Assembly: GCA_964582235.1 (NCBI GenBank) | Contig: CAZOQW010000001.1 | Coordinates: forward strand, 76,835 to 140,834 | Direction: 5' to 3' | Length of the DNA stretch: 64,000 nt | From: an uncultured Muribaculaceae bacterium | GTDB taxonomy: Bacteria > Bacteroidota > Bacteroidia > Bacteroidales > UBA932 | In this document: positions 1 to 47,924 of the stretch, in pieces | How positions within the stretch are numbered: position 1 is the first letter of the stretch | How the letters are laid out: each line of letters begins with the position of its first letter | Notes under the pieces: generated by a model | What the model was told of the DNA's origin: nothing | Database searches by the model: none | What the model saw: the letters and a program-made list of their open reading frames with translations, nothing else | Made by a program: the position numbers and the translations under genes

Positions 1-631
1 CCCTCTGGGTTCCGAGCTTGTCTGCACTGAGCAGCAGCAAGGTGGGAGGAGTATCAGGTCCTACCCGCCTGTCGAGGGAATAATATTCCACCATATCTTT
101 GCCCGCGCGGGGACCGACAAGGTTCAGCCGGGTTCCTGCATGGGTAACGAATTCATCGAAACTGATGACGGGGTACACGAGGACGGAAAAGTCCGGGCGC
201 GTAAGTTCGTCGACAAAAAGGGTGGATGCCGAAGCCGCAAGATGGCCTCCGGCAGAGAAGCCCATCACGCCTATTTGGGAAATACCCCACTCGCCGGCAT
301 GTGCACGACAATAGCGGAAAGCGTTCTGGACATCGGTAAGGGGAACGGAAGGATGACCGTTGCAATTCTCGGGGAGGTAGATATCCATATAGGCACCGTC
401 CCCGATGTTGGAGATGTTGCCGTTGTCGGGATTGACCACATTGTCTCCGACAAGCCCGTTGGACTCGCCGGGGCCGAGGGTCAGAGCCTTGCCGTTTTCG
501 ACTATGCCCTTGTCCGAGTCCTGACCTTCGGGATAAAGCAGCACCCTGAAAGAAGGCCCGACCAGTTCGTAGGCTGAGGCAGCGAAAAGAGGCAGAACGG
601 ACACTATCAGACCGAGAATGAACTTGCGCAT
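1..631 (-). pseudogene. Secreted alpha/beta hydrolase (esterase-like), open at the window edge, with apparent in-frame internal deletion(s)
   Basis: Manual translation from ATG 631: signal peptide MRKFILGLIVSVLPLFAASA, nucleophile elbow GFSAGGHLAAS, RPDFSVLVYPVIS. IYLPENCNG runs straight into HPSVPLTDVQ without the usual PGGGY...YR segment. Not in the ORF track because it runs off the edge. Confidence 0.7.
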
Positions 632-664
632 GAGGCGATACCTTTTATATGGTAAGCGCTGGAA

Positions 665-835
665 CTACTCTTCGGAGATTGCACCGGTAGGGCAGGCATC
701 TACGCAGGTGCCGCAGCTGATGCAAACTTCAGGGTCAATGGAATACACATCGCCTTCTTGGATTGCTCCCGTAGGGCACTCACCGAGGCATGTTCCGCAT
801 GCTACGCATACATTAGAGTCAATTTTGTAAGCCAT
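665..835 (-). CDS. 2x[4Fe-4S] ferredoxin (56 aa)
   Basis: Manual translation MAYKIDSNVCVACGTCLGECPTGAIQEGDVYSIDPEVCISCGTCVDACPTGAISEE; two CxxCxxCxxxCP motifs; below the ORF-track size cut-off. Confidence 0.95.
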   Translation of the reverse strand: MAYKIDSNVCVACGTCLGECPTGAIQEGDVYSIDPEVCISCGTCVDACPTGAISEE

Positions 836-866
836 TTTGATAAATCATTGAAAGGTTAAACCGCGG

Positions 867-874
867 CAAAAGTA
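867..874 (-). promoter_or_regulatory. Bacteroidetes -7 promoter element (TACTTTTG) for ferredoxin
   Basis: Matches TAnnTTTG on the minus strand about 30 nt upstream of ATG 835. Confidence 0.6.
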
Positions 875-886
875 CATAATTTTTCT

Positions 887-894
887 TAACTTTG
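887..894 (+). promoter_or_regulatory. -7 promoter element (TAACTTTG) for DUF1573-parE-acyltransferase
   Basis: TAnnTTTG just upstream of ATG 901. Confidence 0.6.
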
Positions 895-900
895 CGCGTT

Positions 901-1257
901 ATGCGTTTCATTTTGTCCGTCATACTCGCCATGCTGCTTCAGGCCCCGTTCCAGTTCGACAAGACGGTGCATGACTTCGGCGAGGTCAGTGTGAAGGACG
1001 GTGCGCTCCACTGCACTTTCGTCCTCACCAACACCGGGGACAAGCCGCTGGAAATCCATGCAGTCGTCACTACCTGCGACTGCGCGAGCGCAAAGTGGAC
1101 CAAGGAGAGCATCGCACCAGGAGAAAGCGGAAAGATAGAAATCACTTACGAGAACAACGAGGGCCCCTATCCCTTCGACAAACTGTTCCGGGTATATACC
1201 TCGGCGCAACAGAAACCTGTAGCTCTCCACGTGAAGGGAGTCGTGAAGAAGAAGTAA
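901..1257 (+). CDS. DUF1573-like exported Ig-fold protein
   Basis: HDFGEV, F.LTNTGDKPLEI..V.TTCDC, IAPGESG.I.ITY motifs; ATG 901 preferred over TTG 892. Confidence 0.75.
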   Translation: MRFILSVILAMLLQAPFQFDKTVHDFGEVSVKDGALHCTFVLTNTGDKPLEIHAVVTTCDCASAKWTKESIAPGESGKIEITYENNEGPYPFDKLFRVYTSAQQKPVALHVKGVVKKK

Positions 1258-3161
1258 TGGCAGAGATAAACAATTACACAGACGAGAATATACGCACCCT
1301 GGAAAACGCCGACCACATCCGGCGGCGTCCGGGCATGTACATAGGCCGACTGGGTGACGGTTCCGATTCGGGTGACGGCATCTACGTGATGCTCAAGGAG
1401 ATAGTCGACAATTCCATCGATGAATTCTCCATGGGCTACGGAAAGGAAATCCTGATAGACATAAAGGACAACCGTGACGTTTCGGTAAGGGACTTCGGCC
1501 GCGGCATACCTCTCGACTCGCTGGTCAAGGCCGTCAGCGTGCTCAACACCGGAAGCAAGTTCGACGACAAGGTGTTCAAAAAATCCGTCGGACTGAACGG
1601 CGTGGGTTCCAAGGCGGTAAATGCCCTGTCATCGTATTTCAGGGCCGAATCCTACAGGGACGGAGTGTGCGCATGGGCCGAATTCGAGCGCGGGGAACTG
1701 CGCGACAGCGGCAAGCACGAAACCAGGGAGAAGAACGGGACCATGATACATTTCGTTCCCGACACCCTGATGTTCGGAGACTTCTCGTATATCCACGAAT
1801 ATGTCACTTCCCTCGTAAAGAACTACTCTTTTCTGAAGAAAGGGCTGGCGCTCACCTACAACGGGCAGACATACAAGTCGGAGAACGGTCTGCTGGACCT
1901 CGTGCAGGAGAACATGAGCGCAACCCCGCTCTACCCGCCCATACACCTTGAGGGCGAGGACATAGAAATAGTGCTCACCCACACCAACGCCTATGGCGAA
2001 AACGTGGCCTCATTCGTGAACGGACAGAACACGAGGGACGGAGGCACGCACCTCGCCGCCTACCGCGAGGCCGTGGCAAAGACGCTGAAAGAATTCTTCA
2101 AGAAGAACTATGAGCCTTCCGACTGCCGCCAGGGCATAGTCGGAGCCATAAGCATACAGATTCAGGAGCCGAATTTCGAGGGCCAGACCAAGACCAAGCT
2201 CGGCTCCACCTACATGTGGGAAAAGCAGTATCCCGACGAGGACGGCACCATGAAAGTGGACATAGGCCCGTCGATACGCGCGTTCGTCAACGATTTCATC
2301 TCCAAGAACCTCGACAACTACCTCCGCATGCACATGGAGATAGTGCCGACACTCGAAGAGAAAATCAAGGCTTCACAGCAGGAAAGGCTGGAAATCAGCG
2401 GCATACAGAAAAAGACCCGTGAACGCAACAAGCGCAGCAACGTATTCAACCCCAAACTGCGCGACTGCCGCTACCACTACTGCGACAAGCCCAACGACAA
2501 GACCAGGCAGTTCATCGAGAGTTCGTCCATCTTCATCACCGAGGGCGATTCCGCGAGCGGTACCATAACCACGGCCCGCAACGCCAATTACCAGGCGGTG
2601 TTCTCGCTGAGAGGCAAGCCCATAAACTGCTACAAGGAGAGCCGCAAGCGCGTGGCCGAGAACGACGAGCTTAACCTGCTCATATCCGCACTCGGCGTTG
2701 AGGACGATCTGGACAACCTCCGCTACAACAATATAATAGTGGCGACCGATGCCGATGACGACGGTATGCACATACGCATGCTGGTGCTGACTTTCTTTAT
2801 GAAATACTACCCCGAGCTGATACGTCAGGGACACGTACACATATTGCAGACCCCGCTGTTCAGGGTAAGGAACAAGAAGGTGAACCGCTACTGCTACACT
2901 ATCGAGGAGAAGGACCGCGCGGCAGCCGAGCTGAAGACAGGAGTGGAAATCACTCGATTCAAAGGTCTCGGAGAAATCTCCGCCACCGAGTTTGTACACT
3001 TCATCAACGAGGACATGAGACTTGACCTCGTGAATCTCGCCGACGACGAGGACATTGCCGAACTCATGCAGTTCTACATGGGCGACAACACCCTCGACCG
3101 CCAGAATTTCATACGCAGGAACCTCCGCAGCGAGGAGGAACTTGAAGACATCGACATTTAA
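1257..3161 (+). CDS. parE: DNA topoisomerase IV subunit B
   Basis: IRRRPGMYIG, EIVDNSIDE, TOPRIM ITEGDSA, LRGKP, IATDADDDG, RFKGLGEI; about 635 aa; TAATG coupling with the upstream stop (ORF-track start 1095 is an overcall). Confidence 0.9.
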   Translation: MAEINNYTDENIRTLENADHIRRRPGMYIGRLGDGSDSGDGIYVMLKEIVDNSIDEFSMGYGKEILIDIKDNRDVSVRDFGRGIPLDSLVKAVSVLNTGSKFDDKVFKKSVGLNGVGSKAVNALSSYFRAESYRDGVCAWAEFERGELRDSGKHETREKNGTMIHFVPDTLMFGDFSYIHEYVTSLVKNYSFLKKGLALTYNGQTYKSENGLLDLVQENMSATPLYPPIHLEGEDIEIVLTHTNAYGENVASFVNGQNTRDGGTHLAAYREAVAKTLKEFFKKNYEPSDCRQGIVGAISIQIQEPNFEGQTKTKLGSTYMWEKQYPDEDGTMKVDIGPSIRAFVNDFISKNLDNYLRMHMEIVPTLEEKIKASQQERLEISGIQKKTRERNKRSNVFNPKLRDCRYHYCDKPNDKTRQFIESSSIFITEGDSASGTITTARNANYQAVFSLRGKPINCYKESRKRVAENDELNLLISALGVEDDLDNLRYNNIIVATDADDDGMHIRMLVLTFFMKYYPELIRQGHVHILQTPLFRVRNKKVNRYCYTIEEKDRAAAELKTGVEITRFKGLGEISATEFVHFINEDMRLDLVNLADDEDIAELMQFYMGDNTLDRQNFIRRNLRSEEELEDIDI

Positions 3162-3170
3162 AGGACAATC

Positions 3171-3719
3171 ATGAATTTTTACGGTTTAGTCATGCGCATT
3201 TGGGGCTGGAAAGCCGACAGCGGCCCTGCTCCCGAGGAAAAGTGCATAATTCTGGGCGTTCCACACACCTGCATAGGCGACTTCTTCGTTGCATACTTCT
3301 ATTACAGGAGTCTGGGACACATAGCCCACGTAATGATAAAGAAGGAGTTCTTCATCGGCCCGTTGGGCTGGCTGCTCCGCAAATTCGGCTGCATCCCGGT
3401 GGACCGCACGAACGGCGCGACAGTGGTGCGCAGCGTAATCAGCGAGATGGAGAAATGCAAGGGCGAATTCCACCTCTGCATAGCCCCGGAAGGCACGCGC
3501 AAGGCTGCGCGTCGCTGGAAAATGGGCTATCACACCATTGCCAAGGCCCTCGACTGCCCCGTGTACATGGGTTACTTCGACTGGGGACGCAAGCGCGTGA
3601 GCATAGGCGAGAAGATAGAGCTGACGGATGATCCCCGCGCGGACACCGACCGCATTCAGGCACACTATGAGCAACTGCAGCTTACTGCCAGGCACCCTGA
3701 AAATTATCGCACTCATTAG
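3171..3719 (+). CDS. 1-acyl-sn-glycerol-3-phosphate acyltransferase family
   Basis: PHTCIGD (HxxxxD), KKE, G.IPVDR, IAPEGTR motifs. Confidence 0.8.
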   Translation: MNFYGLVMRIWGWKADSGPAPEEKCIILGVPHTCIGDFFVAYFYYRSLGHIAHVMIKKEFFIGPLGWLLRKFGCIPVDRTNGATVVRSVISEMEKCKGEFHLCIAPEGTRKAARRWKMGYHTIAKALDCPVYMGYFDWGRKRVSIGEKIELTDDPRADTDRIQAHYEQLQLTARHPENYRTH

Positions 3720-3744
3720 CGTTGCACACAATAAAAATTATTTA

Positions 3745-3752
3745 TATCTTTG
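3745..3752 (+). promoter_or_regulatory. -7 promoter element (TATCTTTG) for rpsF-rpsR-rplI
   Basis: Consensus match about 50 nt upstream of the rpsF ATG. Confidence 0.7.
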
Positions 3753-3799
3753 CAGCCCCTTATGAAAAGGGGCTATTTTTTAACTAATTTAATTTTAAA

Positions 3800-4240
3800 A
3801 TGATCAAGCAGTACGAAACCGTTTTCATTGCAACTCCCGTTTTGTCTGAAGCTCAGATGAAGGAAGCGGTTGCCAAGTACACCAAGCTCATCACCGACAA
3901 CGGCGGCGAGATTGTGTACGAAGAAGACTGGGGACTCAAGCAGCTCGCTTACCCCATCCAGCACAAGACCTCAGGGTTCTACTATCTCATCGAGTTCAAG
4001 GCCGACCCCCAGTTCGTCGACATCCTCGAGACCCAGTATCACCGCGACGAGCGCATCCTGCGCTACATCACCGTTGCCATGGACAAGCACGCTGTGGCTT
4101 ACGCTGAGCACCGTCGCCAGAACCGCGCCGCAAAGGCCGCAACTCCCAAGGCTGAAGAGACTCCCGTTATCGTAAAGGAGGAAGTTCCCGCAGCTGTCGA
4201 AGATGTTAACGCAGAGACTGAAACCCAAGAAGAAGCATAA
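3800..4240 (+). CDS. rpsF: 30S ribosomal protein S6
   Basis: [29 protein letters not shown]; canonical order with rpsR-rplI. Confidence 0.97.
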
Positions 4241-4245
4241 TCACC

Positions 4246-4509
4246 ATGGCCAATAACGAAATACGTTATCTGAACCCTCCTACCGTAGAGGTTCGCAAGA
4301 AGAAATATTGCCGCTTCAAGAAAGCCGGCATCAAGTACGTGGACTACAAGGACCCCGAGTTCCTCAAGAAGTTCCTCAACGAGCAGGGAAAGATCCTGCC
4401 CCGCCGCATCACCGGCACCTCACTCAAGTTCCAGCGTAAAGTGGCTCAGGCCGTTAAGCGTGCCCGCTCACTCGCGCTCCTTCCTTACGTAACTGACCTC
4501 CTTAAATAA
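4246..4509 (+). CDS. rpsR: 30S ribosomal protein S18
   Basis: [42 protein letters not shown]. Confidence 0.98.
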
Positions 4510-4522
4510 TAATTGAAGCGTT

Positions 4523-4966
4523 ATGAAAATCATACTTAAGAAAGAAGTTGCCAATCTCGGCGAGGCCGGAGATGTGGTAGAAGTAAAGACCGGTTACGCT
4601 CTCAATTATCTTGTGCCTCAGGGATATGCAACGGTAGGTACTCCTTCCGCCCTCAAGCAGCACGAGGAGACCCTCCGCCAGAGGGCTCACAAGGAAGCCA
4701 AGCTCGTGGCTGATGCCCAGGCTCTCGCAGCCAAGATCGAGGCTGTAGCACTCAGCGTCAGCGCCAAGGTCGGCGAGAACGGCAAGCTCTACGGTGCTGT
4801 TACCTCAGCACAGGTTGCAGAGGCTCTTGCAGCTGCCGGAGTTGAGGTGGAGAAGAAGAACATCAACCTCCCTGACATCAAGGAGCTCGGCGAGTTCGAG
4901 GGAACCGTAAAGTGCTACAAGGGTGTTTTCGCAAACATCAAGGTAACTGTTACGGCTGCCGAGTAA
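4523..4966 (+). CDS. rplI: 50S ribosomal protein L9
   Basis: MKIILK..V.NLG..GDVVEVK.GYA.NYL.PQG, GKLYGAVT. Confidence 0.97.
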   Translation: MKIILKKEVANLGEAGDVVEVKTGYALNYLVPQGYATVGTPSALKQHEETLRQRAHKEAKLVADAQALAAKIEAVALSVSAKVGENGKLYGAVTSAQVAEALAAAGVEVEKKNINLPDIKELGEFEGTVKCYKGVFANIKVTVTAAE

Positions 4967-4984
4967 TTCGTCCGGATATAAGCA

Positions 4985-5020
4985 AAAACAGGGGGCTGGC
5001 TGGCTCCCTGTTTTGTTTTT
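4985..5020 (+). terminator. Intrinsic terminator after rplI
   Basis: 12-bp stem aaaacagggggc/gctccctgtttt followed by a T-run. Confidence 0.75.
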
Positions 5021-5500
5021 ACCCGGCGCTGCGCTTCGCCGCCCGCCTGACGGCGGGCCCTGCTACGCTTTTAACCCCTCAGTCCGCTGCGCGGCCAGCT
5101 CCCCGGGGAGCATGACGGCGTGTCAGAAGTCACGCCTACGGCTTCGCTTGCGCTATCGCACAGGCCATCCGCGGGCGTTTTTCAGTAAGCAGCCTTTCGC
5201 CCCGGCCCCTGCGCTTCGCTACGCCGCCCGCCTGATGGCGGGCCTGCAAGCAGGGAAATACCCCTCAGTCTGCTTGTAGACAGCTCAACAAAGAGCATGA
5301 CGGCGTGTCAAAAGCCACGCCTACGGCTCCGCTTGCGCTATCGCACTGGCCAGCCGCGGGCGTTTTACGATGAGGAAACTTCGTCCCCAGCCACGAGTGC
5401 TTTCCAGTAAGCAGCCTTTGTCCACGGCCCCTGCGCATCGCTACGCCGCCCGCCCGACGGCGGGCCCTGCTTTGCAGGGGAATACCTCGCAGTCTGCAAT
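5021..5500. repeat. Tandem composite palindromic repeat (about 2.4 units of 180-220 bp), REP/BIME-like
   Basis: Motifs gcccgcc-N4-ggcgggc, cccctcagtc(c/t)gc and gagcatgacggcgtgtca..cacgcctacggct..gcttgcgctatcgcac recur in units starting near 5021, 5201 and 5422. Confidence 0.85.
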
Positions 5501-5566
5501 GAATGCTGCATTCCGCAGAAGGTTTTGCGGCAATTATTAGTTAATTTTTGCTAACTTTACGGACTT

Positions 5567-6229
5567 ATGAAAATAGACAAGAACTCATACGGATCTCTCG
5601 CGCTGGTTTACGCAATATGCCTGATTGTGGTCTTGCTGACCATCATCTTCGTCCAGGTAAAGTGGGTTTCATTCTGTGTTATCGCAGCGATGCTTTGGAC
5701 ATGCGCCTGGCAGACCTGCTTTTTCAGGGTCCCCACGCGCAAGCGTTGCGGAGATTCACGCCAGGTGAGTTCAGTCGCCGACGGCAAGGTCATCATAATC
5801 AAGCAAGCCGTAGAAAGCGAATATCTCCAGAAGGAGTGCATACAAGTGTCCGTATACATGAACTTCTTTGACGTACACGCCAATTTCTGGCCGGTGGACG
5901 GACAGGTAAAGCACTACTGCTACTATCCCGGCAAGCATTTCCTCGCATTCAAGCACAAGGCTTCGCTGGAAAACGAGCATACCTGCGTCAGCATAATGAC
6001 CCCAGAAGGTCATGAAGTGGTATTCAAGCAGATAGCAGGCGGCTTTGCCCGGAGAATAGTCAATTACGCCGGAGAAGTGAGCGAAGTCCGCTCCGGAGAG
6101 CAGTGCGGAATCATAAAGTTCGGATCCCGCATAGACATCTTCCTTCCCCTCGACACGGAAATAAAGGTAAAATTAGGCGACGAGGTCCGGGCCTGCGAAA
6201 CTATCCTTGCAGTACTTCCTCCAGTTTAG
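5567..6229 (+). CDS. psd: Phosphatidylserine decarboxylase proenzyme (short type)
   Basis: SVADGKV, SVYMNFFDVHAN..PVDG, KQIAG..ARRIV, GIIKFGSRID self-cleavage motif. Confidence 0.92.
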   Translation: MKIDKNSYGSLALVYAICLIVVLLTIIFVQVKWVSFCVIAAMLWTCAWQTCFFRVPTRKRCGDSRQVSSVADGKVIIIKQAVESEYLQKECIQVSVYMNFFDVHANFWPVDGQVKHYCYYPGKHFLAFKHKASLENEHTCVSIMTPEGHEVVFKQIAGGFARRIVNYAGEVSEVRSGEQCGIIKFGSRIDIFLPLDTEIKVKLGDEVRACETILAVLPPV

Positions 6230-6803
6230 TCCGCAAGTCCCCGACAGAACTGAACACTATCCCCTTTATCCCGAAGGTTTCCGCTGCGGCAATGTTGTCG
6301 GGGTTATCATCGATGAACACGCTTTCTGAAGGATTCAAGGCATACCTGTCAAGCAGGATGCGGTAGATTTCCGGTCTCGGTTTCATGGTATGCTCTTCGC
6401 CCGACACCACTATCCCGTCCATGAGCCTGAATATCGGGTAAGTGTCCCTTATCAGAGGAAAGGTCTCAGCCGACCAGTTCGTAAGTCCATAGATGCCATA
6501 GCCCCTGTCCTTGAGTTCCGCAACCAGTTCCCGCATCCCGGGAAGTTCCCCGTTCATCATTTTTACCCACTCCCCGTAGTACATCCTTATTTCCTTTTTC
6601 CACTCGGGATACAGGGCTATGCGCTCCGCCGTGGCCTCAGCCGTGCTTTTCCCGGCATCCACCGTGGCATTCCATGAATACGGGCAGATCTGCTCAAGAA
6701 AATGGTCAGTCTTGGCAGGGTCGCCGAAATAGGGATCATAAAGGTATCGGGGGTTCCAGTCCACGAGAACTCCGCCAAAATCGAAAATAATGTTTCTTAT
6801 CAT
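6201..6803 (-). CDS. HAD-superfamily phosphatase
   Basis: IIFDFGGVL, LTN, MKP, FIDD motifs. Confidence 0.88.
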   Translation of the reverse strand: MIRNIIFDFGGVLVDWNPRYLYDPYFGDPAKTDHFLEQICPYSWNATVDAGKSTAEATAERIALYPEWKKEIRMYYGEWVKMMNGELPGMRELVAELKDRGYGIYGLTNWSAETFPLIRDTYPIFRLMDGIVVSGEEHTMKPRPEIYRILLDRYALNPSESVFIDDNPDNIAAAETFGIKGIVFSSVGDLRTKLEEVLQG

Positions 6804-7119
6804 TTGTCCACCCTCTTTCTTGTGGTTATTATTATCACACCGTTTGCACCCCTCGCGCCGTAAATTGAAGTGGTGTACGCATCTTTGAGCACTTCCACCG
6901 ACTCCACTTGGTTAGGGCTGAGGTAACTTATATCCGAGACCTCCATGCCATCCACGAGTGTGAGCGGCTCGTTGCTTCCAAGTATGGAACGTTCACCTTG
7001 CCGTATCCGATATTCACGTACTCTTCGTCGTCCGCTCCCCTGCCAGACACGGCTTTTCCGGCCGATCTGCACGAACTCAGCACAGAAAAAAGTGCAAAAA
7101 TCAAGATAAGTTTGTTCAT
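6800..7119 (-). pseudogene. Small lipoprotein with TonB-receptor plug domain, internally deleted and frameshifted
   Basis: 5' part MNKLILIFALFSVLSSC (lipobox)...NIGYGKV in one frame; 3' part GERSILGSNEPLTLVDG...VESVEVLKDA..SIYGARGANGVIIITT in another; switch at ggtgaa (6992-6997). Confidence 0.75.
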
Positions 7120-7155
7120 GATGACGTGGTTTTTTCAAAACTAAGAAATTTTCCC

Positions 7156-7163
7156 TATATTTG
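7156..7163 (+). promoter_or_regulatory. -7 promoter element (TATATTTG) for tRNA-Cys
   Basis: Consensus match 13 nt upstream of the tRNA. Confidence 0.7.
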
Positions 7164-7176
7164 CAATCCCAATGAC

Positions 7177-7247
7177 GGTGCGTTGGCCGAGTGGTTAGGC
7201 ACAGGTCTGCAAAACCTGGTACACCGGTTCGATTCCTGTACGCACCT
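7177..7247 (+). tRNA. tRNA-Cys(GCA)
   Basis: Acceptor ggtgcgt/acgcacc, anticodon arm caggt-ctGCAaa-acctg, TTCGA loop, U discriminator. Confidence 0.95.
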
Positions 7248-7251
7248 CCTC

Positions 7252-7283
7252 AGACGGTTGAACATGAGTTCAGCCGTCTTTTT
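7252..7283 (+). terminator. Terminator hairpin after tRNA-Cys
   Basis: agacggttgaa-N6-ttcagccgtct followed by a T-run. Confidence 0.75.
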
Positions 7284-7303
7284 ATTTATATGTGCCGCCT
7301 TGA

Positions 7304-7405
7304 GCCGTAGTGCTCCCTGGGGAGCTGGCTGCGACAGCAGACTGAGGGGTATTTCCCTGCGAAGCAGGCTCGCCGTCAGGCGGGCGGCGTAGCAGACTGA
7401 GGGGT
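7304..7405 (-). repeat. Inverted partial copy of the 5021-5500 repeat family
   Basis: Reverse complement contains ctacgccgcccgcctgacggcgagcctgc..agggaaatacccctcagtctgc..ccagctcccc.gggagca; gcagactgaggggt occurs twice. Confidence 0.8.
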
Positions 7406-7407
7406 AA

Positions 7408-7437
7408 AAAAATTGGGAGCCGGAGCTCCCAATTTTT
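7408..7437. terminator. Bidirectional terminator hairpin
   Basis: 13-bp perfect stem aaaaattgggagc-cgga-gctcccaattttt. Confidence 0.8.
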
Positions 7438-7440
7438 GCG

Positions 7441-7551
7441 TCAAGCCGACAGCACTCCTGCAAGGGCAGCCGCCAAGAGCAGGGCTATGAGACTCCTAAT
7501 CCAGCGGAGAGTGTTCCCGCGTATGCTGTATGTATGAGATGACTTGCCCAT
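7441..7551 (-). other. 36-aa ORF resembling an isolated signal peptide (small membrane peptide or gene remnant)
   Basis: MGKSSHTYSIRGNTLRWIRSLIALLLAAALAGVLSA*; starts 6 nt after the transporter stop and ends at the terminator. Confidence 0.45.
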
Positions 7552-7557
7552 AATATT

Positions 7558-9255
7558 TTAAGATTCGGTTGCTGCTTCGATTTTCTTCAACATCGCGAAC
7601 ATTATCAGACCGGCAAGCACGCAGAGAGCCATGAGCACTGCCCAGTTGGCCTCCAGGGACACATTCATCCACAACAGACCGGGAATCGAGCTGAGGTAGT
7701 TGCCGACAGCGGTCGCAGCGAACCAAAGACCCATCATGAGACCTTTGTACTTGGGAGGTGCCACCTTGGTCACGAAAGAGATTCCCATAGGGCTGAGCAG
7801 GAGTTCCGCGAAAGTCAGCACGAGATAAGTTCCCATGAGGTAGGCGGGCACTACGGGGTCAGGAGCCACCGTACCCTGAATCTCGGCAGGAGCGGGCTGT
7901 CCCATGGATGCGAAAATCATCACGAGATAGCCGAGGGCGGCCACGAACATTCCTATTCCGATTTTCTTCGGGGCTGAAGGTTCAAGTCCATTCGGGTGTT
8001 TCTTTGTCTTCTTGGAAGCCAGCCAAGAGAACAGGGCAATGGAAATAGGTGTAAGGAACACCACAAAGAAGGGATTGAACTGCTGGAAGAGCTGGGGCTG
8101 GATGGTGAGGGGATCCTCAAGTCCGGCATATATGGCGTATGCGCCACCCCAGAGGACGAGCGTCACGACTGCGCAGATAAATTTGCTACTGCGCTTCTCG
8201 GCTTGAAATACCTGGAAGAGCGTGTATATGCTTATGGCTATCAGCGCGAGTATCCAGATATTGAAGCCCATACGGGTCCAGCCTGTAGCGAAGCTCTGGG
8301 TATAGTCACGTGCGAACCAGGTAAGCGACTGGCCGTTCTGGTGGAATGCCATCCAGAAGAAAATTACGACTGCGAACACGAGGCAGAGGGCGACAATCCT
8401 GTCCTTGGTCTGCTTCGGGGTAAGTTCCTCGACCTTTGCGGCACCGGAAGCGGCAGCCTGCTTGGCATTGACATCGGCATGCCTGAACCATGAACGGCAG
8501 GCGAAATAGATGCCGACAGAAACTATCAGGGATATGCAGGCTACTGCAAAGCCCATGTTATATGAAGATGAAAGATGTTCGATGTAGTACGGGCAGAAGC
8601 TGTCGAGACCCATTCCGGCAACATCGGAACCGGGCATCATGTCTTTCAGTCCCTCCAGACGGGAAAGGTTGTCGGAAGTGATGGTGCCGTTCATGTACTG
8701 GTGAGCGAGGGCGGGTATATCAGCCTTGTAAACCAGTCCGGCCTTGCCGAGGAAACTGTTGGTGATGGCGGTGGCTGCAGAAGGAGCGAACATCGCACCG
8801 ATGTTGATTGCCATGTAGAAGAGGCTGAATGCGGAATCTCGCTTGGGGGCATACTTGGGATCATCGTAGAGATTGCCCACGAGCACCTGGAGATTACCTT
8901 TGAAGAGTCCCGTTCCCACGGATATAAGGAGCAGGGCGCCTATCATCAGCACCACTCCAAAGGCGTTGGCAGCGGTAGGTATGGCCAAAACCAGATACCC
9001 CATGAACATCACTGAAATTCCCACAACCACGCATTTGCCGTAACCTATGCGGTCGGCGAGCCAGCCGCCGAGCACGGGCATGAAATAAACCGCAGCAAGG
9101 AAAATAGAGTAAACTTGACTTGCCGTAGCCTGTTCCCAGCCGAACTTGGCCTGAAGGAAAAGCATGAAGATGGCAAGCATGGTGTAGTAGCCGAATCGCT
9201 CGCCGGTGTTGGCCAGCGCAAGGGCATACAGACCTTTTGGTTGTCCTTTGAACAT
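7558..9255 (-). CDS. POT/PTR-family proton-dependent oligopeptide transporter (MFS)
   Basis: GERFGYY (ExxERFxYY-like), GGWLADR, GTGLFKGN, FSLFYMAINIGA, FQQFNPFF; start set at MFKGQPKG. Confidence 0.92.
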   Translation of the reverse strand: MFKGQPKGLYALALANTGERFGYYTMLAIFMLFLQAKFGWEQATASQVYSIFLAAVYFMPVLGGWLADRIGYGKCVVVGISVMFMGYLVLAIPTAANAFGVVLMIGALLLISVGTGLFKGNLQVLVGNLYDDPKYAPKRDSAFSLFYMAINIGAMFAPSAATAITNSFLGKAGLVYKADIPALAHQYMNGTITSDNLSRLEGLKDMMPGSDVAGMGLDSFCPYYIEHLSSSYNMGFAVACISLIVSVGIYFACRSWFRHADVNAKQAAASGAAKVEELTPKQTKDRIVALCLVFAVVIFFWMAFHQNGQSLTWFARDYTQSFATGWTRMGFNIWILALIAISIYTLFQVFQAEKRSSKFICAVVTLVLWGGAYAIYAGLEDPLTIQPQLFQQFNPFFVVFLTPISIALFSWLASKKTKKHPNGLEPSAPKKIGIGMFVAALGYLVMIFASMGQPAPAEIQGTVAPDPVVPAYLMGTYLVLTFAELLLSPMGISFVTKVAPPKYKGLMMGLWFAATAVGNYLSSIPGLLWMNVSLEANWAVLMALCVLAGLIMFAMLKKIEAATES

Positions 9256-9298
9256 AATTATTAAAGAGTTATAGATTTTTACCACGTCGGCAACTCCG

Positions 9299-9306
9299 CA
9301 AAGATA
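9299..9306 (-). promoter_or_regulatory. -7 promoter element (TATCTTTG) for the POT transporter
   Basis: caaagata on the plus strand. Confidence 0.6.
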
Positions 9307-9442
9307 GAAAAATTCCGCAATTTAGCCTAACGGCCACTGCACGGCGGCAGCTGGCAGAGTCAAACGACAAGTGCAATCTACGCTCGACCGCAATCCGAAT
9401 CCGAATCAAGCAAACTCGTTTGGATTGCTCTCAACTTCTGCG

Positions 9443-9450
9443 TATCTTTG
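9443..9450 (+). promoter_or_regulatory. -7 promoter element (TATCTTTG) for the acyltransferase
   Basis: Consensus match 6 nt before ATG 9457 (near-leaderless). Confidence 0.55.
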
Positions 9451-9456
9451 TCTGAT

Positions 9457-10371: not shown

Positions 10372-10440
10372 AAAGCAGGAATGTGGATATTTTTTGCTAC
10401 CTTTCAGAGTTTGAACGAAAATTCTTTAAAACAATAAGAC

Positions 10441-11898: not shown

Positions 11899-11899
11899 G

Positions 11900-22661: not shown

Positions 22662-22704
22662 AGAAGCGTAGCGGGGAACACGGGAATGCCGGAAGTGTTG
22701 GGAA

Positions 22705-22920
22705 ACATCTCTTGGTAAGAGATGTCTTTAAACCTCGCAAAGATATAAAAAATCCACTAACTGCCACATAAAAACAGCACAAAACATCCGGCTTGAGTCT
22801 ATTGGTATTGCTGTGTTTCACAAAATTCAAGGATTTGTTTCACAAACCCGAATTACAATTTATGCAAATGCTTCGCTTTCAGGCAGGAAGCATAAAGTTC
22901 CATCTCTTACCAAGAGATGT
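22705..22920. mobile_element. Invertible promoter segment (inverton), 216 bp, bounded by 20-bp perfect inverted repeats
   Basis: acatctcttggtaagagatg (22705-22724) and catctcttaccaagagatgt (22901-22920) are exact reverse complements; lies between the recombinase and upxY. Confidence 0.9.
22738..22768 (-). promoter_or_regulatory. Promoter inside the inverton (TGTG-N19-TATCTTTG) pointing away from the capsule genes (OFF)
   Basis: caaagata at 22738-22745 and caca at 22765-22768 on the plus strand. Confidence 0.75.
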
Positions 22921-23648: not shown

Positions 23649-24089
23649 ATGACTTATCTGCTTTTGATAAGTAGTTTCCTGCTATCTGTATTGCTTGGGA
23701 TGATGATTATCCCCGAAATACTGCTGATTTCCCACAAGAAACGCCTGTTCGATATGCCCGACAGCCGCAAGGTGCATACCACGCCCATCCCGCGCCTCGG
23801 AGGACTATCTTTCTTCCCGGTGATACTCATCACCACGTGCCTCGTGCTGGGAATCAGTTATTATGCAGGCTTCCCCATCAAGAACCTGCCGGCCAATGCC
23901 ATGTTTTACGAGTTTCCGTTCATCACGGTCGGATGTATGATGCTTTACCTGACGGGGATGACGGACGATCTGATAGGTGTCCCATACCGCCGCAAGTTCC
24001 TTGTGCAGATTACCGCCGCCCTGATGCGGTTGGGCATCAATCGGATTATCAGGCGGCATGAACGCATGACCGGACAGACATCAAACTGA
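23649..24089 (+). pseudogene. WecA/MraY-family initiating transferase, internally truncated
   Basis: LFDMPDSRKVHTTPIPRLGG, GMTDDLIGV..RRKF.VQ, then directly a short tail; 146 aa, lacks the N.IDG.DGL and FMGD motifs. Confidence 0.8.
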
Positions 24090-33936: not shown

Positions 33937-33970
33937 AAATTCGTAACTTAAATTAATCGGCATAATTATT

Positions 33971-34507
33971 ATGATGTATCCCAAGCGCCTTTTTATTATA
34001 AACAAGTTAGTTGGTTTGCTCCCTATGTCGAAGTGTAACTCGCTGAAGTCAAGACTATATAAATGGGGGGGAGTAAAAATTGGCAACAATGTAGAACTAT
34101 TTTCCGGCCTTAAAATAATAGGCAATGGTGAACTGGAAATAGGGGATAATGTCTTTATTGGCACAGAGGCAATGATTTATGTTAACAGAGGCAGCAAAGT
34201 TATTCTTGAAGAACACGCTTCTGTAGGAACTCGTGCCATAATTGTTACTGGCTTCCATCCGATTACGCCAGAGGGGCCACGGATAACCAGTCATAAAAGC
34301 ACAACAAGTACTGTAAGGGTTTGCAAGGGGGCTTCTGTCGGTACTGCAACTATTGTTTTACCAGGCATAACTGTAGGAACAATGGCTCACTGCGTGGCTG
34401 GGGCTGTAGTAACTCACGATGTGCCTCCATACCACAGAGTTGGAGGCGTTCCCGCCCGGTTTATTCGTGACTTGAGGCTTCCAAAGGAAAATAACAATAA
34501 TGTATAA
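33971..34507 (+). CDS. Left-handed beta-helix (hexapeptide) acyltransferase
   Basis: IGNNV, IGDNVFIG repeats, VLPGITVG, VTHDVP...VGGVPARFI. Confidence 0.85.
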   Translation: MMYPKRLFIINKLVGLLPMSKCNSLKSRLYKWGGVKIGNNVELFSGLKIIGNGELEIGDNVFIGTEAMIYVNRGSKVILEEHASVGTRAIIVTGFHPITPEGPRITSHKSTTSTVRVCKGASVGTATIVLPGITVGTMAHCVAGAVVTHDVPPYHRVGGVPARFIRDLRLPKENNNNV

Positions 34508-35108
34508 GCATTATTTAAAGCGGGTAATAGATTTCATTCTCGTTCTTTGTGCCTTGGCTGTTATTTGGCCTGTGCTTGTTATAATAGCTATTTTGCTTCA
34601 TTTCGCCAACAAAGGTGCAGGGGCTTTTTTTTTACAAGAGCGACCGGGTAAGGATGGGAAGATATTCAAGGTCATCAAATTCAAGACTATGACTGATGAA
34701 CGGGATGCAGATGGTAATTTGTTGCCCGACGAAAAACGGATTACGAAAATAGGGAAACTGATTCGTTCTATCAGCATTGACGAACTACCACAGCTTATTA
34801 ATGTACTGAAGGGTGATATGTCGCTTATTGGCCCTCGTCCTTTATTGGTGCAATATCTGCCGCTATATAGCAAAGAGCAAGCACGACGGCACGAAGTACG
34901 TCCCGGCATAAGCGGGTGGGCGCAATGTCATGGACGCAATGCTATTAGTTGGACAGAAAAGTTCAAACTTGATGTGTGGTATGTTGACCATTGCTCTTTC
35001 AAAGTGGATATGAAAATTATATGGATTACTCTACTGAAAGTAATCAAGCGTGCCGATATCTCCCAGGAAGGGCGAGCCACGATGGACTATTTTGACGGCA
35101 CAAATTAG
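34500..35108 (+). CDS. Initiating phosphoglycosyl transferase (PglC-like, Bac_transf)
   Basis: KRVIDF, FLQERPG..GK.FK.IKFKTM, SIDELPQLINVLKGDMSLIGPRP, RH.VRPGISGWAQ. Confidence 0.92.
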   Translation: MYKHYLKRVIDFILVLCALAVIWPVLVIIAILLHFANKGAGAFFLQERPGKDGKIFKVIKFKTMTDERDADGNLLPDEKRITKIGKLIRSISIDELPQLINVLKGDMSLIGPRPLLVQYLPLYSKEQARRHEVRPGISGWAQCHGRNAISWTEKFKLDVWYVDHCSFKVDMKIIWITLLKVIKRADISQEGRATMDYFDGTN

Positions 35109-35121
35109 ACAGCTTGGAAAA

Positions 35122-40700: not shown

Positions 40701-40712
40701 AACAACTAATTT

Positions 40713-43903: not shown

Positions 43904-43995
43904 AAAGAATTCTAAGCGAACCTAAGAAGCAAATCCGCAGGTACACCGAGATAAACACCGGCCAGTTTAACCTTATAAAATTCACAAAAATGAAT

Positions 43996-44205
43996 ATGAA
44001 AACAGTTCTTATTACGGGCGTAACCGATCAGGACGGCTCCTATTTGGCCGAATTCCTGTTGGAAAAGGGTTATGACGTACACGGCACCATACGCCGCTCG
44101 TCAGTCGATTACCGCTCCTGTCACAATCGAAGACTAAGTATGGGTGGCGGCAATCCTGCGAAATTTATCAGGAAACGACAAATAAAGGAGGCGGAAAACA
44201 GTTAA
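43996..44205 (+). pseudogene. Chimeric remnant: gmd 5' fragment fused to WcaF-like acetyltransferase fragments
   Basis: [40 protein letters not shown], then PVTIED (other frame) and [11 protein letters not shown] typical of hexapeptide acetyltransferase C-termini. Confidence 0.75.
44029..44115 (+). repeat. 87-bp exact direct repeat, copy 1 (copy 2 at 45735-45821 in gmd)
   Basis: caggacggctcc...gtcgattaccgc is identical in both places. Confidence 0.95.
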
Positions 44206-45371
44206 TACATCATGCCGAAAGTCCAAAGGGGAAGCGTGGCCAGTCCGGCGGTTTCGATATCGTCTTTCACAATGTAAGCGTTTTGCCCGCCCCTGACCTG
44301 TTTCGTTCCTTTGTTTTTGCCGCCTACCTCGAATGTGTACTCACCAATTGTGAAATCCGACAGGCGTGATGACAACGGAACGTGGGTGACACGGGTCAAT
44401 GCATAGAAGAATGTTTCGCGCAGGTTGCCAATGTTGGGCGTGGTGTCGGAAAGAGCGTAAGCCATATTGGTGTTGTCAAGATAAACCTTGTCAATCTTAC
44501 CGAGTCCGCTGATACCCTGCACATCGCTACGCAAGCGGCCAATCATACCCGCCTTCTCAAGGTAAGCGAAAATGTCGTTCAACTGGTTACGGCTGATATT
44601 GATGTCTTGGGCTATTTTGGCCATGTTGGGCTTGAACGGCACACTTTGAGCTATAATATACATCAATTGCTTAAGTTTTCGAGCCGTGGCAATGCCGAAA
44701 TTTGCAAAAGTCGGGATATCGGTTTCCAATGTGGTGTTGATTACGGCGTTCAGTCTTGACAAATAACCTTTTTCCTTGAAAAATGGATAATAACCCTCAC
44801 GCAAGTATTGATGAAAATACGGTAGTGGACGATGTTCCTTGGGAAGATTGACTTCGCCGCGAAGAACATCTTCAAAACTTGCAACCGGTACACGGATGCC
44901 GAAACCAAAATCAAGGTATTCGCGAAATGACAGCCCATACATGGTGTATTGCAACTGGCGCCGTGAAAGATCCGCACCGCCTTTTTCGAGTTCAAGAATG
45001 GATGAGCCTGTGTAGACCACGTTGAGATTGGGAAGACTATCGTAAATATTCTTTATTTCTGCCGACCAATTGCCATACCGATGTATCTCATCGATGTAAA
45101 GACATGTGCCGCCGTTATGATAAAATGTCTCTGCAAGTTCCACCAAAGTATGCCTGCTGAAGTAGAGGTCATCGGCCGTTACATAAAGAGATGCGGACAG
45201 GTTGCCATGCCGCTTGATGTGCTGGAGCAACATCGTGGTTTTGCCCACACCCCGTGCGCCAAGAATGGCGATAAGACGTGCATCCCATTCTATTTTTGGT
45301 TCAAGGTATCTGACAAACCGTGTGTCTGTATTGCGCAGCAGTTCCCTGTATTTCATTATTAGTTGTTCCAT
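44202..45371 (-). CDS. AAA+ ATPase with DUF4143-like C-terminus
   Basis: [33 protein letters not shown]-like [29 protein letters not shown]; start set at MEQLIMKY. Confidence 0.85.
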
Positions 45372-45388
45372 AATCGTGATGTTTGAGG

Positions 45389-45456
45389 CAAAGGTATAAA
45401 AATGCACTGTAAAATGTGCATTTTTTCGCAAAAACGCACTATAGAATGTGCATTTT
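45389..45456 (-). promoter_or_regulatory. ATPase promoter (TACCTTTG at 45389-45396) with two palindromic 24-bp repeats
   Basis: aatgcactgtaaaatgtgcatttt (45401-45424) and aacgcactatagaatgtgcatttt (45433-45456). Confidence 0.6.
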
Positions 45457-45467
45457 CATAGATAGTC

Positions 45468-45700
45468 ATGATATTGCCGATCTTTCAGTCATCATCCTCA
45501 CCTATAACGATGAGTTGCACATCCGCCGATTTGCTTGATATCGAATTGGCCTGACCGGCTCTCGACAGATGCGGACAGCTGCAAGAAAATCAGCCCGCAG
45601 GCCTTGGCCAAACGGAGTATTCTCCAACCCGTTGTTTTGGGCATGCGCTACCCGTACAATATATCCGAGATTCTTATGACAAAACTCAACAACATATTCA
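45468..45700 (+). pseudogene. Collapsed GT2 glycosyltransferase remnant
   Basis: DLSVIILTYNDELHIRR at 45479-45529, followed in shifting frames by [18 protein letters not shown]. Confidence 0.6.
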
Positions 45701-45701
45701 A

Positions 45702-46790
45702 ATGAAAACAGCATTAATCACCGGCATCACCGGCCAGGACGGCTCCTATTTGGCCGAATTCCTGTTGGAAAAGGGTTATGACGTACACGGCACCATACGC
45801 CGCTCGTCAGTCGATTACCGCGAACGCATAGCCCATATAGAGGGACACCCCAATTTTCATCTGCATTACGCTGATTTGGGTGACTCCATGAGTATTATCC
45901 AGGTAGTGAAGAAGGTCTGCCCCGATGAAATATACAACCTCGCAGCTCAGAGCCATGTCCAGGTTTCCTTCGACTCTCCGGAGTTTACTGCCGATGTGGA
46001 CGCTACAGGCGTGCTCCGCATCCTTGAGGCCGTGCGTCTGTGCGATCTGACCGGGACCTGCCGCATCTATCAGGCATCCACTTCCGAGCTTTACGGAAAG
46101 GTTGAGGAAGTGCCGCAAAGCGAAACCACTCCCTTCCATCCCTACAGCCCTTACGCCGTAGCCAAACTCTACGGCTACTGGATAGTGAAGGAATACCGCG
46201 AAGCCTACAATATGTTCTGCTGCTCGGGCATACTGTTCAACCACGAGAGCGAGCGCCGGGGAGAGACCTTCGTCACCCGGAAAATTACCTTGGCCGCCGC
46301 CCGAATAGCCCAGGGCAAGCAGGACAAGCTCCTCTTAGGCAACCTTTCTTCGCTACGTGACTGGGGTTATGCCAAAGACTACGTGGAATGTATGTGGCTC
46401 ATCCTGCAGAACGACAAGCCCGAAGATTACGTCATCGCCACAGGCGAACAGCATTCCGTGCGTGAGTTCTGCCAATTAGCCTTCCGCCACGTCGGCATCG
46501 AACTGCGCTTCGAAGGAGAGGGCGAAAACGAGAAGGGCATAGATGTGAAAACCGGCAGGGTACTCGTGGAGGTATCCCCCGATTTCTACCGTCCCACCGA
46601 CGTGGTCAATCTCCTGGGCAATCCCGAAAAGGCCAAGCGTGAACTCGGCTGGAATCCACAAAAGACGACCTTCGAACAGCTCGTGAAACTGATGGTAGAT
46701 GCAGATATGGAAAAGGTTGCAGTGGAGAGGGCCAGTGAGCGCGTGCGCACCAACTTAGCCGAGTATCTCGAAAAAGGTATCGTGAAATGA
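45702..46790 (+). CDS. gmd: GDP-mannose 4,6-dehydratase
   Basis: [63 protein letters not shown]. Confidence 0.97.
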
Positions 46791-46865
46791 CGGCGAAATT
46801 CTCTGGGACATCACCCGCCCCAACGGAACACCCCGCAAATTGCCCGATGTGTCCAAAGCCAAACC
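46787..46865 (+). pseudogene. GDP-L-fucose synthase (fcl) remnant
   Basis: Frame from 46789 reads [24 protein letters not shown], the Fcl C-terminal W..SKP.GTPRKL.DVSK motif, fused to the ATG overlapping the gmd stop. Confidence 0.75.
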
Positions 46866-46870
46866 CTTCT

Positions 46871-46898
46871 ATTCCCCTGCCCTCCGCAGGGGGATTTT
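46871..46898. terminator. Terminator hairpin ending the gmd transcript, convergent with LytTR
   Basis: attcccctgc-cctcc-gcagggggat stem, T-run. Confidence 0.6.
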
Positions 46899-46911
46899 GC
46901 TTTGTTTGTCC

Positions 46912-47712
46912 TCAGAGCATATCCGAAAGCTTCTCGAAATACTGCTTGCTTACGGGAATCTTTATCCTGCCGTCCTCTGATATTTCCGCCGTTATGATTC
47001 CGTCCGAGCCACGGCTCAATACGTTGATATGCCTTGGATTCACGAAATATGACCTGTGGCAACGGACGAGCGAATGCCTTTCGGCAACGCTTTCGAGACT
47101 TTTCATCGAGGCGCGCAGCAAATAGTCCTTGACCTTGTCGTTCTCTAAATAGTGTATCTTTACATAATTTGCCTCCGCGCTGATGTACAGGACTGCGGAG
47201 GGGGAAATGGTCAGTTTAAGGCGCTTGTGCTCGTCATAGAACTTTATAAGCGAGTTGTCCCAGGACTCACGCTGGTTTTTCAGTTCCTCCTGCGTCTCGT
47301 TCAAGTGCTTGAAAAGTATCAGAATGAAGTACGGATACACGAGTATCGTACCTATCGAGCGGAAGGCCTGGTGAAGTGCCGTGAAATACTGTATCTCTCC
47401 CCTGTAGAAAAGATTGGTGTACAAGGCAACGAAAAACGACATGAACACTATCTCGAAAAAGCACCACAGATAATAGTAAACCGGCAGAAATTTATAGGTT
47501 TTGGCCGTGAAATACAGTATAACCCTCGTAATCAGCAGGCAAACAAGCATGATACAGAAGATCATGACGAAATGGAAGGGAAAATTCTTGCCGCCCACCT
47601 GGTAGTAATCCTGTATGTCGAAGGGATTGTACAGGAAGCAGAACAACATGAAGAATGCCGGCAAAAGCAGGATATAAATGACGTGATACGCAAAATTGTT
47701 TGACAGTTTCAT
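46912..47712 (-). CDS. Membrane-anchored LytTR-domain regulator
   Basis: Four N-terminal TM segments; YISAEANYV.I, LR.SMKSLE, RCHRSYFVN, IPVSK.Y; no receiver domain. Confidence 0.85.
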   Translation of the reverse strand: MKLSNNFAYHVIYILLLPAFFMLFCFLYNPFDIQDYYQVGGKNFPFHFVMIFCIMLVCLLITRVILYFTAKTYKFLPVYYYLWCFFEIVFMSFFVALYTNLFYRGEIQYFTALHQAFRSIGTILVYPYFILILFKHLNETQEELKNQRESWDNSLIKFYDEHKRLKLTISPSAVLYISAEANYVKIHYLENDKVKDYLLRASMKSLESVAERHSLVRCHRSYFVNPRHINVLSRGSDGIITAEISEDGRIKIPVSKQYFEKLSDML

Positions 47713-47719
47713 GGCAATT

Positions 47720-47869
47720 TTTGTCCCTAAAATATGTGGGACGAAATTAATTTCATCTAAAATTCGTCCCCAAAATACGCAATTCTTCCGGCAAAACAAG
47801 ATTTTTCATCCCTTTTTCAATGTTTTGGTAACAGTTTGTTCGTCCCACGGCAAAGGTGGGATAACTTTG
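47720..47869. promoter_or_regulatory. Array of TTCRTCCC-like boxes plus plus-strand -7 element TAACTTTG (47862-47869)
   Basis: Boxes at 47720, 47738 (inverted), 47763, 47783, 47805, 47839. Confidence 0.55.
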
Positions 47870-47924
47870 CATTACTATGTGCATTTCTTTATAACCTTTA
47901 CGACTGGAGAAAGACTTCTGACAG

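Follow-up and report, generated by a model that had tools for sequence, protein, structure and literature searches.

Internal deletions at short direct repeats in accessory and surface genes of an uncultured Bacteroidales bacterium of the chicken gut

The loss of DNA between short direct repeats is a long-known, classical mechanism in bacteria. Such deletions were reportedly described in 1982 by Albertini et al. for the lacI gene of E. coli, and Lovett and co-workers are said to have dealt with their formation by RecA-independent slipped misalignment. At the level of whole genomes, Mira, Ochman and Moran reportedly put forward a deletional bias in bacterial genomes in 2001, while the pseudogenes of Rickettsia are said to have been described by Andersson and Andersson. 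The capsular loci of Bacteroidales, as for example in B. fragilis and B. thetaiotaomicron, comprise an UpxY antiterminator, an invertible promoter, Wza and Wzc and a mosaic gene content. Here, we analysed a stretch of 64,000 nucleotides (nt) from an uncultured Muribaculaceae bacterium (contig CAZOQW010000001.1, positions 76,835 to 140,834; in the following referred to as the window), in which at least five internal deletions were confirmed in four genes, encoding an alpha/beta-hydrolase, a stand-alone Plug-domain lipoprotein, a wecA-type initiating transferase and Fcl. Together with further remnants at 43996-45700, these four genes stand among approximately 62 open reading frames (ORFs) of the window and about 7 kb of an overlapping contig (L083). 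No paper dealing specifically with decay by deletion in Cryptobacteroides or Bacteroides was found in a literature search.

As in the known deletions at short direct repeats, one copy of a word of 5-12 nt was kept, the segment between the copies was lost, the sizes range from approximately 100 nt to 1 kb, and no mobile element is involved. In contrast to the lacI studies, the deletions are natural polymorphisms in an uncultured gut species and not events in a reporter gene, and an independence from RecA and a role of replication would here be presumed. The pattern also resembles the decay of pseudogenes under deletional bias, since dispensable genes are trimmed by successive deletions (several per dead gene for the hydrolase, fcl and the gmd/acetyltransferase region) and core genes are untouched, although the organism is a free-living gut commensal and not, like Rickettsia, an obligate intracellular bacterium. 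With an integrase, an invertible segment (22705-22920), the NusG-like UpxY, wecA, wza and wzc, a low GC (guanine plus cytosine) content and strain-variable genes, the middle of the window corresponds to the capsular loci of Bacteroidales. Unlike in the swapping of capsular cassettes, the stubs of wecA and fcl go back to resident genes from which a segment bounded by repeats was simply deleted.

Altogether, it is assumed with a probability of about 0.82 that each loss arose spontaneously and independently of the others, as a deletion between short direct repeats (8-12 nt), and that the losses accumulated over time in dispensable genes. They would have followed the classical RecA-independent short-homology route, either via replication slippage or via single-strand annealing, and would be spread over time in genes which the species can spare, namely a secreted esterase (hit twice), a small Plug lipoprotein of the outer membrane, a wecA-type transferase at the start of a capsule locus and fcl at the far end of this region. 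Purifying selection would purge deletions in core genes, so that survivors would be left only in accessory and surface genes.

For comparison, window-like words were sought in sequencing runs, which led to four bird gut metagenomes (X1 to X4), each comprising a fraction of 0.18-0.47 of the sampled words. Parts of the window itself are covered by the Logan contigs L001, L082 and L083 and by P0001, an entry derived from ENA. L001 and L083, both from run SRR7039263, showed 100% identity to the window (L083 comprising its positions 1-3838), and L082 from run SRR7039257 differed in one of 7829 nt. Intact alleles were found for the hydrolase, wecA and fcl in strains of approximately 98-99% identity, while for the plug gene only the more distant orthologues in L002 and L003 were available. 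The window originates from a relative of 'Candidatus Cryptobacteroides': its POT-family transporter (7558-9285, minus strand) is 81-84% identical to proteins encoded by 'Candidatus Cryptobacteroides' and further uncultured Bacteroidales, known as metagenome-assembled genomes (MAGs). The coordinates of all features are given in Table 1.

The hydrolase at the left end of the window had been described as a stub, and the comparison supports this more strongly than claimed. The complete gene of this strain, as present in L083, encodes 225 amino acids (aa), whereas its closest allele (P0122, DNA in L086) encodes 315 aa at an identity of 98% over the aligned positions; about 120 other homologues were obtained in a homology search, most of them with 310-320 aa. 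Truncation by the edge of the window is therefore only part of the explanation, as the complete gene is still 90 aa short. Compared to the homologues, two clean in-frame gaps were observed. The first comprises 44 aa (NGQMVIVCPGGGY...LYRMP) in the region of the oxyanion-hole motif (HGGG-type), the second 46 aa (DDTAVPPENS...GGHGWGF...) in the Asp/His region, and the BD-FAE match of the window hydrolase in Pfam is restricted to the profile positions 67-108. L086, which shows 98.6% identity to the window from 354 to 5328 (approximately 5.3 kb), carries CAACGGCCA on either side of the segment missing at junction 1, corresponding to a microhomology of 6-9 nt, and GTGCAGAC and GTGCGGAC as flanks of the segment missing at junction 2, where the microhomology amounts to 8 nt (7/8 in L086). 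The contigs of X1 to X4 independently agree with L086: one contig of X1 matches 26-362 and then 357-415 with 126 extra nt in between, one of X3 matches 20-109 and 1-27 with 130 extra nt in between, and loose contig ends in X2 encode the motif MVIVCPGGG of the hydrolase. The opposite polarity, i.e. insertions in the relatives by a miniature inverted-repeat transposable element with target-site duplication, was rejected, because the extra segments encode the conserved catalytic motifs VIVCPGGGY and GGHGWGF, which occur in all homologues.

The reading of wecA as a stub was likewise confirmed. Its product of 146 aa comprises 128 aa from the N-terminus, continued in frame by some 18-20 aa of the extreme C-terminus; it aligns with Glycos_transf_4 transferases up to ...KFLVQITAAL and then continues with MRLGINR..., and Pfam gave a weak match to the N-terminal part only. 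A homology search with the stub returned only fragments of at most 255 aa, many of them frameshifted before the FMGD motif, and the full-length comparison was made on the DNA of L084 and L085. In both, wecA lies at the same position (upxY, wecA, wza, wzc), comprises approximately 1.0-1.1 kb or 340-370 aa and ends with ...LQLGINR... (...LWTVLQLGINRGIRK... and ...LWTLMQLGINRASQK..., respectively). Contigs of X1 and X2 depart from the window after 24027 and continue with ALMPALSGEWFNS, while others enter at 24020 from LLILDIVLWV, from which it follows that these strains carry an intact wecA. The identical stub recurred in L082, which stems from another run, and in P0001; the junction did not turn up in JGI metagenome contigs that were scanned for it. 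The native stop codon of wecA, located 17 nt upstream of wza, was kept. In the same capsule locus, an intact sugar transferase of the Bac_transf family is encoded at 34500-35108, which is probably the initiating enzyme of the locus; accordingly, wecA is plausibly redundant.

At its locus, wecA is very often split in public data (L084, L085, P0002, P0004, P0015, P0069 and P0099). L084 (L084:956-1974) and L085 (L085:786-1895) each show a disruption of their own, a frameshift in the former and an in-frame stop in the latter, many database entries of approximately 240 aa end in a shifted frame just before the FMGD motif, and the stub of 90 aa in P0099 occurs on 571 contigs. Recurrent inactivation, phase variation and sequencing errors are alternative explanations for the split entries. 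Upstream of wecA, the order is integrase (21450-22661), invertible segment and upxY (23028-23615, with a NusG domain); downstream, genes with Poly_export and Wzz/GNVR/AAA_31 domains (wza, wzc) follow, as in an UpxY-type capsule locus. In contigs of X1 and X2, joints between 22703/22705 and 22920/22921 connect opposite strands and share approximately 20 nt at the ends. The segment at about 22703-22920 between integrase and upxY looks like a phase-variable capsule promoter.

In the case of fcl, the first junction lies directly at the end of an intact gmd, which matches its Pfam profile over the full length (Table 1). The junction consists of the 12-nt repeat ATGACGGCGAAA (46787-46798), the intact gmd being followed by ATGACGGCGAAATTCTCTGGGAC. 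A contig of X2 matches the window up to 46798 and then reads AACGCCAAAATATATGTGGCCGGGCACCGG, which corresponds to MTAKNAKIYVAGHR, the normal start of fcl. Contigs of X1 and X4 arrive at 46787 from ...GTCGTGGGTT, reading VVGY and then DGEILWD. As ATGACGGCGAAA is thus present both at the fcl start and near codon 266, approximately 780 nt between the copies were lost. A second break was found at 46862/46863, where a contig of X1 continues past 46862 as ALGWTYKTE. The remnant, which had been placed at 46787-46865 and holds as a stub at 46787-46862, aligns to residues 268-289 of the 321 residues of E. coli Fcl in PDB and Pfam searches, although the match is weak (E about 0.02). Since X1 and X4 also carry the deleted allele, the site is polymorphic.

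The plug gene had been taken for the remnant of a TonB receptor. While the deletion of 136 nt is genuine, the parent gene was a different one: in L002 and L003, which are the genomes closest to the window, the intact orthologues are lipoproteins of 153 aa containing only a Plug domain and lie directly upstream of the same HAD gene. The parent was therefore naturally short, and a remnant of a TonB-dependent receptor, which would comprise a Plug domain and a 22-strand beta-barrel with at least approximately 600 aa, was rejected. The Plug profile is covered from 38 to 107 in the window copy compared to 8 to 107 in the orthologues. The window gene is 142 nt shorter than these, of which 6 nt are accounted for by length variation at the N-terminus and 136 nt by the internal deletion. 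Contigs of X1 and X3 read continuously across the junction and an intact allele did not appear, which indicates that the deletion is older and common to the sampled strains. A look-up with the exact protein of the HAD hydrolase returned no contig.

The surroundings of the plug gene showed a rearrangement. Relative to the POT gene, the block of psd, HAD, plug and tRNA-Cys (5440-7302) has the reverse orientation of that in L002 (L002:11861-13587) and L003 (L003:11876-13576). It is bracketed by inverted copies of a REP-like repeat (I3, I4), and metagenome contigs join the regions of approximately 5130-5440 and 7302-7353 on opposite strands. These GC-rich REP-like repeats were found at 5016-5470, 7302-7410 and 56499-56554, with units of approximately 185-220 nt that are arranged in tandem at 5.0-5.5 kb. 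Their depth in the bird metagenomes was 40-140x compared to about 5x in the flanks, and their copy number varies between strains, as shown by joints skipping 186-313 nt.

To obtain a random expectation for the junctions, 400,000 deletions of 100-1000 nt were placed at random on the window. The simulated junctions comprised a mean microhomology of 0.69 nt, with probabilities of 1.9e-3 for at least 6 nt, 1.9e-4 for at least 8 nt and 7.5e-6 for at least 12 nt. Compared to this, the determined values of 6-9, 8, 8 and 12 nt for the two hydrolase junctions, wecA and fcl are clearly increased; for the plug junction, a repeat of at least 4 nt, GGTG(AA), was found. The words 'aacggt', 'ggtgaa' and 'atgac', on which the junctions had been proposed to sit, each lie inside true repeats. 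For the hydrolase (L086), wecA (X1, X2) and fcl (X1, X2, X4), the intact alleles are collinear with the window on both sides and carry the repeat word at both ends of the lost segment, whereas the deleted allele keeps one copy. Within the window, approximately 1,700 pairs of exact 8-mer repeats lie 100-1000 nt apart, so that substrates for deletion are plentiful. No common motif was found among the junction words, and a site-specific mechanism was therefore rejected.

Microhomology at a junction could also originate from the data themselves, as template switching during amplification joins DNA at such sites; moreover, the window stems from a metagenome-assembled contig of 178.6 kb and its known relatives are all MAGs. 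Nonetheless, collapses or chimeric joins introduced by the assembler or the library chemistry are a very improbable source of the pattern. Logan, which uses another assembler, recovered the same junctions in two runs, they are likewise present in ENA assemblies (P0001), those of plug, fcl and the fusion of gmd and acetyltransferase remnants recur in contigs of X1, X3 or X4, i.e. in unrelated bird metagenomes with a divergence of 1-3%, and repeats of 6-12 nt are far shorter than the k-mers of assemblers.

Table 1. Position and strand of the pseudogenes, deletion junctions, remnants and reference genes in the window.
Feature	Position	Strand	Basis or remark
alpha/beta-hydrolase (BD-FAE/Abhydrolase_3) pseudogene	2..631	-	Pfam, L083, L086/P0122; extends past left window end
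hydrolase junction 1	354..362	-	132-nt in-frame deletion; retained repeat copy CAACGG(T)CA (minus strand)
hydrolase junction 2	20..27	-	138-nt in-frame deletion; repeat GTGCAGAC (minus strand)
wecA-type (Glycos_transf_4) initiating transferase with in-frame internal deletion	23649..24089	+	Pfam, homologue alignment, L084/L085
wecA junction, 8-nt repeat CCTGATGC	24020..24027	+	overlapping X1/X2 contig ends
fcl remnant	46787..46862	+	codons 1-4 joined out of frame to codons ~266-292
intact gmd (GDP-mannose 4,6-dehydratase), reference	45702..46790	+	Pfam positions 1-332 of 332, E = 8e-145
stand-alone Plug-domain lipoprotein pseudogene	6800..7119	-	orthologues in L002, L003; 136-nt frameshifting deletion
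plug junction word GGTGAA	6992..6997	-	within GGCAA-GGTGAA-CGTTCC; frames read ...GYGKV and GERSILGS
gmd 5' end, 120 nt (40 codons)	43996..44115	+	92% copy of intact gmd 45702-45821 (repeat search, family D1)
30-nt piece of unassigned origin (44116-44145), then, from 44146, the final ~19 codons of a hexapeptide acetyltransferase	44116..44205	+	X2/X3 contigs
AAA_14/DUF4143 ATPase gene, not a stub	44202..45431	-	Pfam; strain-variable presence
decayed-remnant patch including ~17 residues like glycosyltransferase family 2 (LSVIILTYNDELHIRR)	45468..45700	+	translation
36-aa ORF	7441..7551	-	between POT gene stop codon and terminator
8-aa 'outer membrane protein tail'	47898..47921	+	stop codons immediately upstream in frame; chance level

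The region from 43996 to 45700, from which two further stubs had been listed (gmd/wcaF and a glycosyltransferase of family 2, GT2), is a mosaic that differs between strains; it lies where two polysaccharide loci of low GC content meet and was made in several steps. The gmd/wcaF stub is a real remnant but consists of three parts including the gmd duplicate and is not a gene with its middle gone. Its gmd part matches the positions 1-36 of the Pfam profile GDP_Man_Dehyd, and in other strains the intact gmd continues after 44115 as ERIAHLEGHP. A contig of X2 arrives at 44146 from an intact acetyltransferase (...FKDVEPWTVV) and then reads GGNPAKF, and the fusion of both remnants is shared by X3 on a contig spanning 44070-44240. 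The match of the acetyltransferase tail to the residues 154-167 of VatA was very weak and not significant, and a look-up with the exact protein of the gmd stub returned no contig. The decayed remnants claimed as a GT2 stub occur also in X1 and X2, apart from 1-nt indels; however, only the GT2-like residues of Table 1 point to this family, and Pfam and PDB searches with this patch and with the other frames of 45468-45700 gave no significant match. The ATPase gene in between is missing from a contig of X2 (joint 44177->45488) and shows an internal deletion of 986 nt in contigs of X1 and X4, and one contig of X1 joins 43951 straight to 45702.

Over 87 nt (44029-44115, corresponding to 45735-45821 of the intact copy), the gmd stub is identical to its intact counterpart in X1, while the intact gmd of the window differs from the stub by 8% in the first 120 nt. 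These comparisons point to a recombination event which replaced the 5' end of the resident gmd.

Exchange of capsule cassettes could in principle account for all stubs at 23-48 kb, which would then represent scars of recombination or horizontal replacement and not deletions in resident genes. The GC content fits this explanation, with 0.36-0.47 at 24-46 kb compared to 0.52-0.57 in the flanks; the latter range was determined for the core region at 1-21 kb, while the whole polysaccharide region (21.3-52 kb) shows 0.36-0.50 and the remaining 52-64 kb are again occupied by core genes. In addition, a tRNA-Arg gene and the integrase mark the left border of the polysaccharide region and two tRNA-Lys genes its right border, the gmd stub duplicates the intact gene and contains a stretch identical to that of X1, and the content varies as described for X1 and X2. 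On the other hand, wecA and fcl are intact and collinear in the related strains, where only the segment between the copies of the 8- or 12-nt word distinguishes them from the window, and an exchange gives no account of the hydrolase and plug deletions, which both lie outside the locus. As a general explanation of the capsule stubs we thus rate it at slightly less than an even chance: such an exchange contributes at 43.9-45.7 kb but leaves the losses in wecA, fcl, the hydrolase and plug unaccounted for. Alongside the deletions at short repeats, turnover of the locus at the right capsule end would have left the partial gmd duplicate and the acetyltransferase and GT2 remnants beside the strain-variable ATPase gene.

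In agreement with the preliminary description, the genes affected are accessory or surface-related, and the neighbouring core genes are intact. Between 1257 and 21245, 20 genes match their closest orthologues over the entire length without any lineage-specific gap of 20 aa or more, and the profile coverage is full or typical for hisS, gdhA, korA/B, skp and bamA. The same holds true for the capsule genes at 24-44 kb, which showed a normal domain coverage. The proposed independence of the deletions from insertion sequences (IS) also held: no transposase families were found among the ORFs scanned, several of which have no family match at all, the repeat search of the window revealed no IS-like inverted repeats, and the junctions lie on short direct repeats.

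Since the confirmed targets are all secreted, envelope or surface-glycan functions, the losses could be adaptive, driven by selection on the surface (e.g. by phages or host immunity) and favouring in-frame alleles which keep the downstream operon expressed. Three of the five events are in frame, wecA has retained its stop codon close to wza and was disrupted independently in L084 and L085, and the hydrolase was hit twice, all of which would be consistent with this explanation. However, three in-frame events out of five are not significant (about 0.2 by chance), so that an in-frame bias was rejected; the deletions in fcl and plug are out of frame, and a second deletion in an already dead gene is expected under neutrality. 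Adaptive loss therefore appears unlikely. While the sequences themselves show the junctions, the repeats, the intact alleles and the polymorphism between strains, the molecular route (slippage or annealing) and the neutral or selected nature of a loss are a matter of inference.

Several points weigh against repeat-mediated deletion as the general explanation. The plug junction was derived from orthologues of only approximately 78% nucleotide identity, the deletion sizes of wecA (approximately 600-670 nt, in frame) and fcl are estimates, and single repeat-mediated events do not suffice to explain the gmd, acetyltransferase and GT2 remnants. The evidence from other strains stems from Logan contigs of low depth (2-10x), which are able to show the presence but not the absence of an allele. 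Furthermore, three of the five sized deletions comprise 132, 136 and 138 nt (junctions 354-362, 6992-6997 and 20-27), while generic slippage predicts no tight cluster of sizes; with n=3, the number is small.

The deletions differ in age, as that of plug occurs in every strain seen, that of fcl is polymorphic and those of the hydrolase and wecA are specific to this strain. Other strains (X1/X4) showed deletions in the POT gene (108 nt, 7950-8059), in upxY (353 nt, 23090-23444, with a microhomology of 11 nt) and in the ATPase gene (986 nt, 44394-45381), which may be deletion alleles of their own or artefacts of low depth. Since the ages vary and other strains carry their own deletions, nothing singles out this strain. 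The preliminary description had assumed a lineage undergoing erosion; rather than a special event in a single lineage, the pattern resembles an ordinary decay that goes on throughout the species.

A high deletion rate specific to the lineage, caused by a defect in repair or replication or by a strong deletional bias and driving a streamlining of the genome, would be in line with at least five events in four genes within 64 kb, with two large deletions compared to approximately 66 substitutions over the 5.3 kb that L086 has in common with the window, and with the deletion alleles of the other strains. As the events are scattered over time and strains like ordinary decay, and the alleles of the other strains were seen at low depth, we regard such a rate as improbable. 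The same low expectation applies to the idea that the species, and perhaps the entire small-genome UBA932/'Cryptobacteroides' group, loses DNA between direct repeats at an unusually high rate, with approximately 130-140 nt as the preferred span. If this were true, streamlining in a free-living gut commensal could be watched as strain polymorphism, and a specific peculiarity of replication or repair would be indicated. A rate that is high throughout the genome would bear on the streamlining of small-genome gut lineages in general; the present evidence corresponds to ordinary gene decay by deletion at short repeats.

For the annotation of MAGs, it follows that a 'hydrolase' of 225 aa, a 'wecA' of 146 aa and a 'Plug protein' of 112 aa in this group should be read as pseudogenes. 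Furthermore, the window provides a clean natural example of short-repeat deletion in which both alleles persist in the population; few such cases are on record for uncultured gut Bacteroidales.

Two of the at least eight stubs originally claimed found no support, while the other six are real remnants, one of them with the wrong parent gene (plug) and another being part of the mosaic. The 36-aa ORF at 7441-7551, described as a signal-peptide ORF, matched only L001 of the same strain in a tblastn search, showed no Pfam match and gave no evidence of being a remnant. The supposed tail of an outer membrane protein is too short to be distinguished from chance (Table 1).

Downstream of the capsule locus, two paralogous genes of the Stealth family (CR1-CR4) were found at 48034-49026 and 49844-50794, which encode putative hexose-1-phosphoryltransferases. 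Both share a stretch of 50 nt at 80% identity (repeat family D7).

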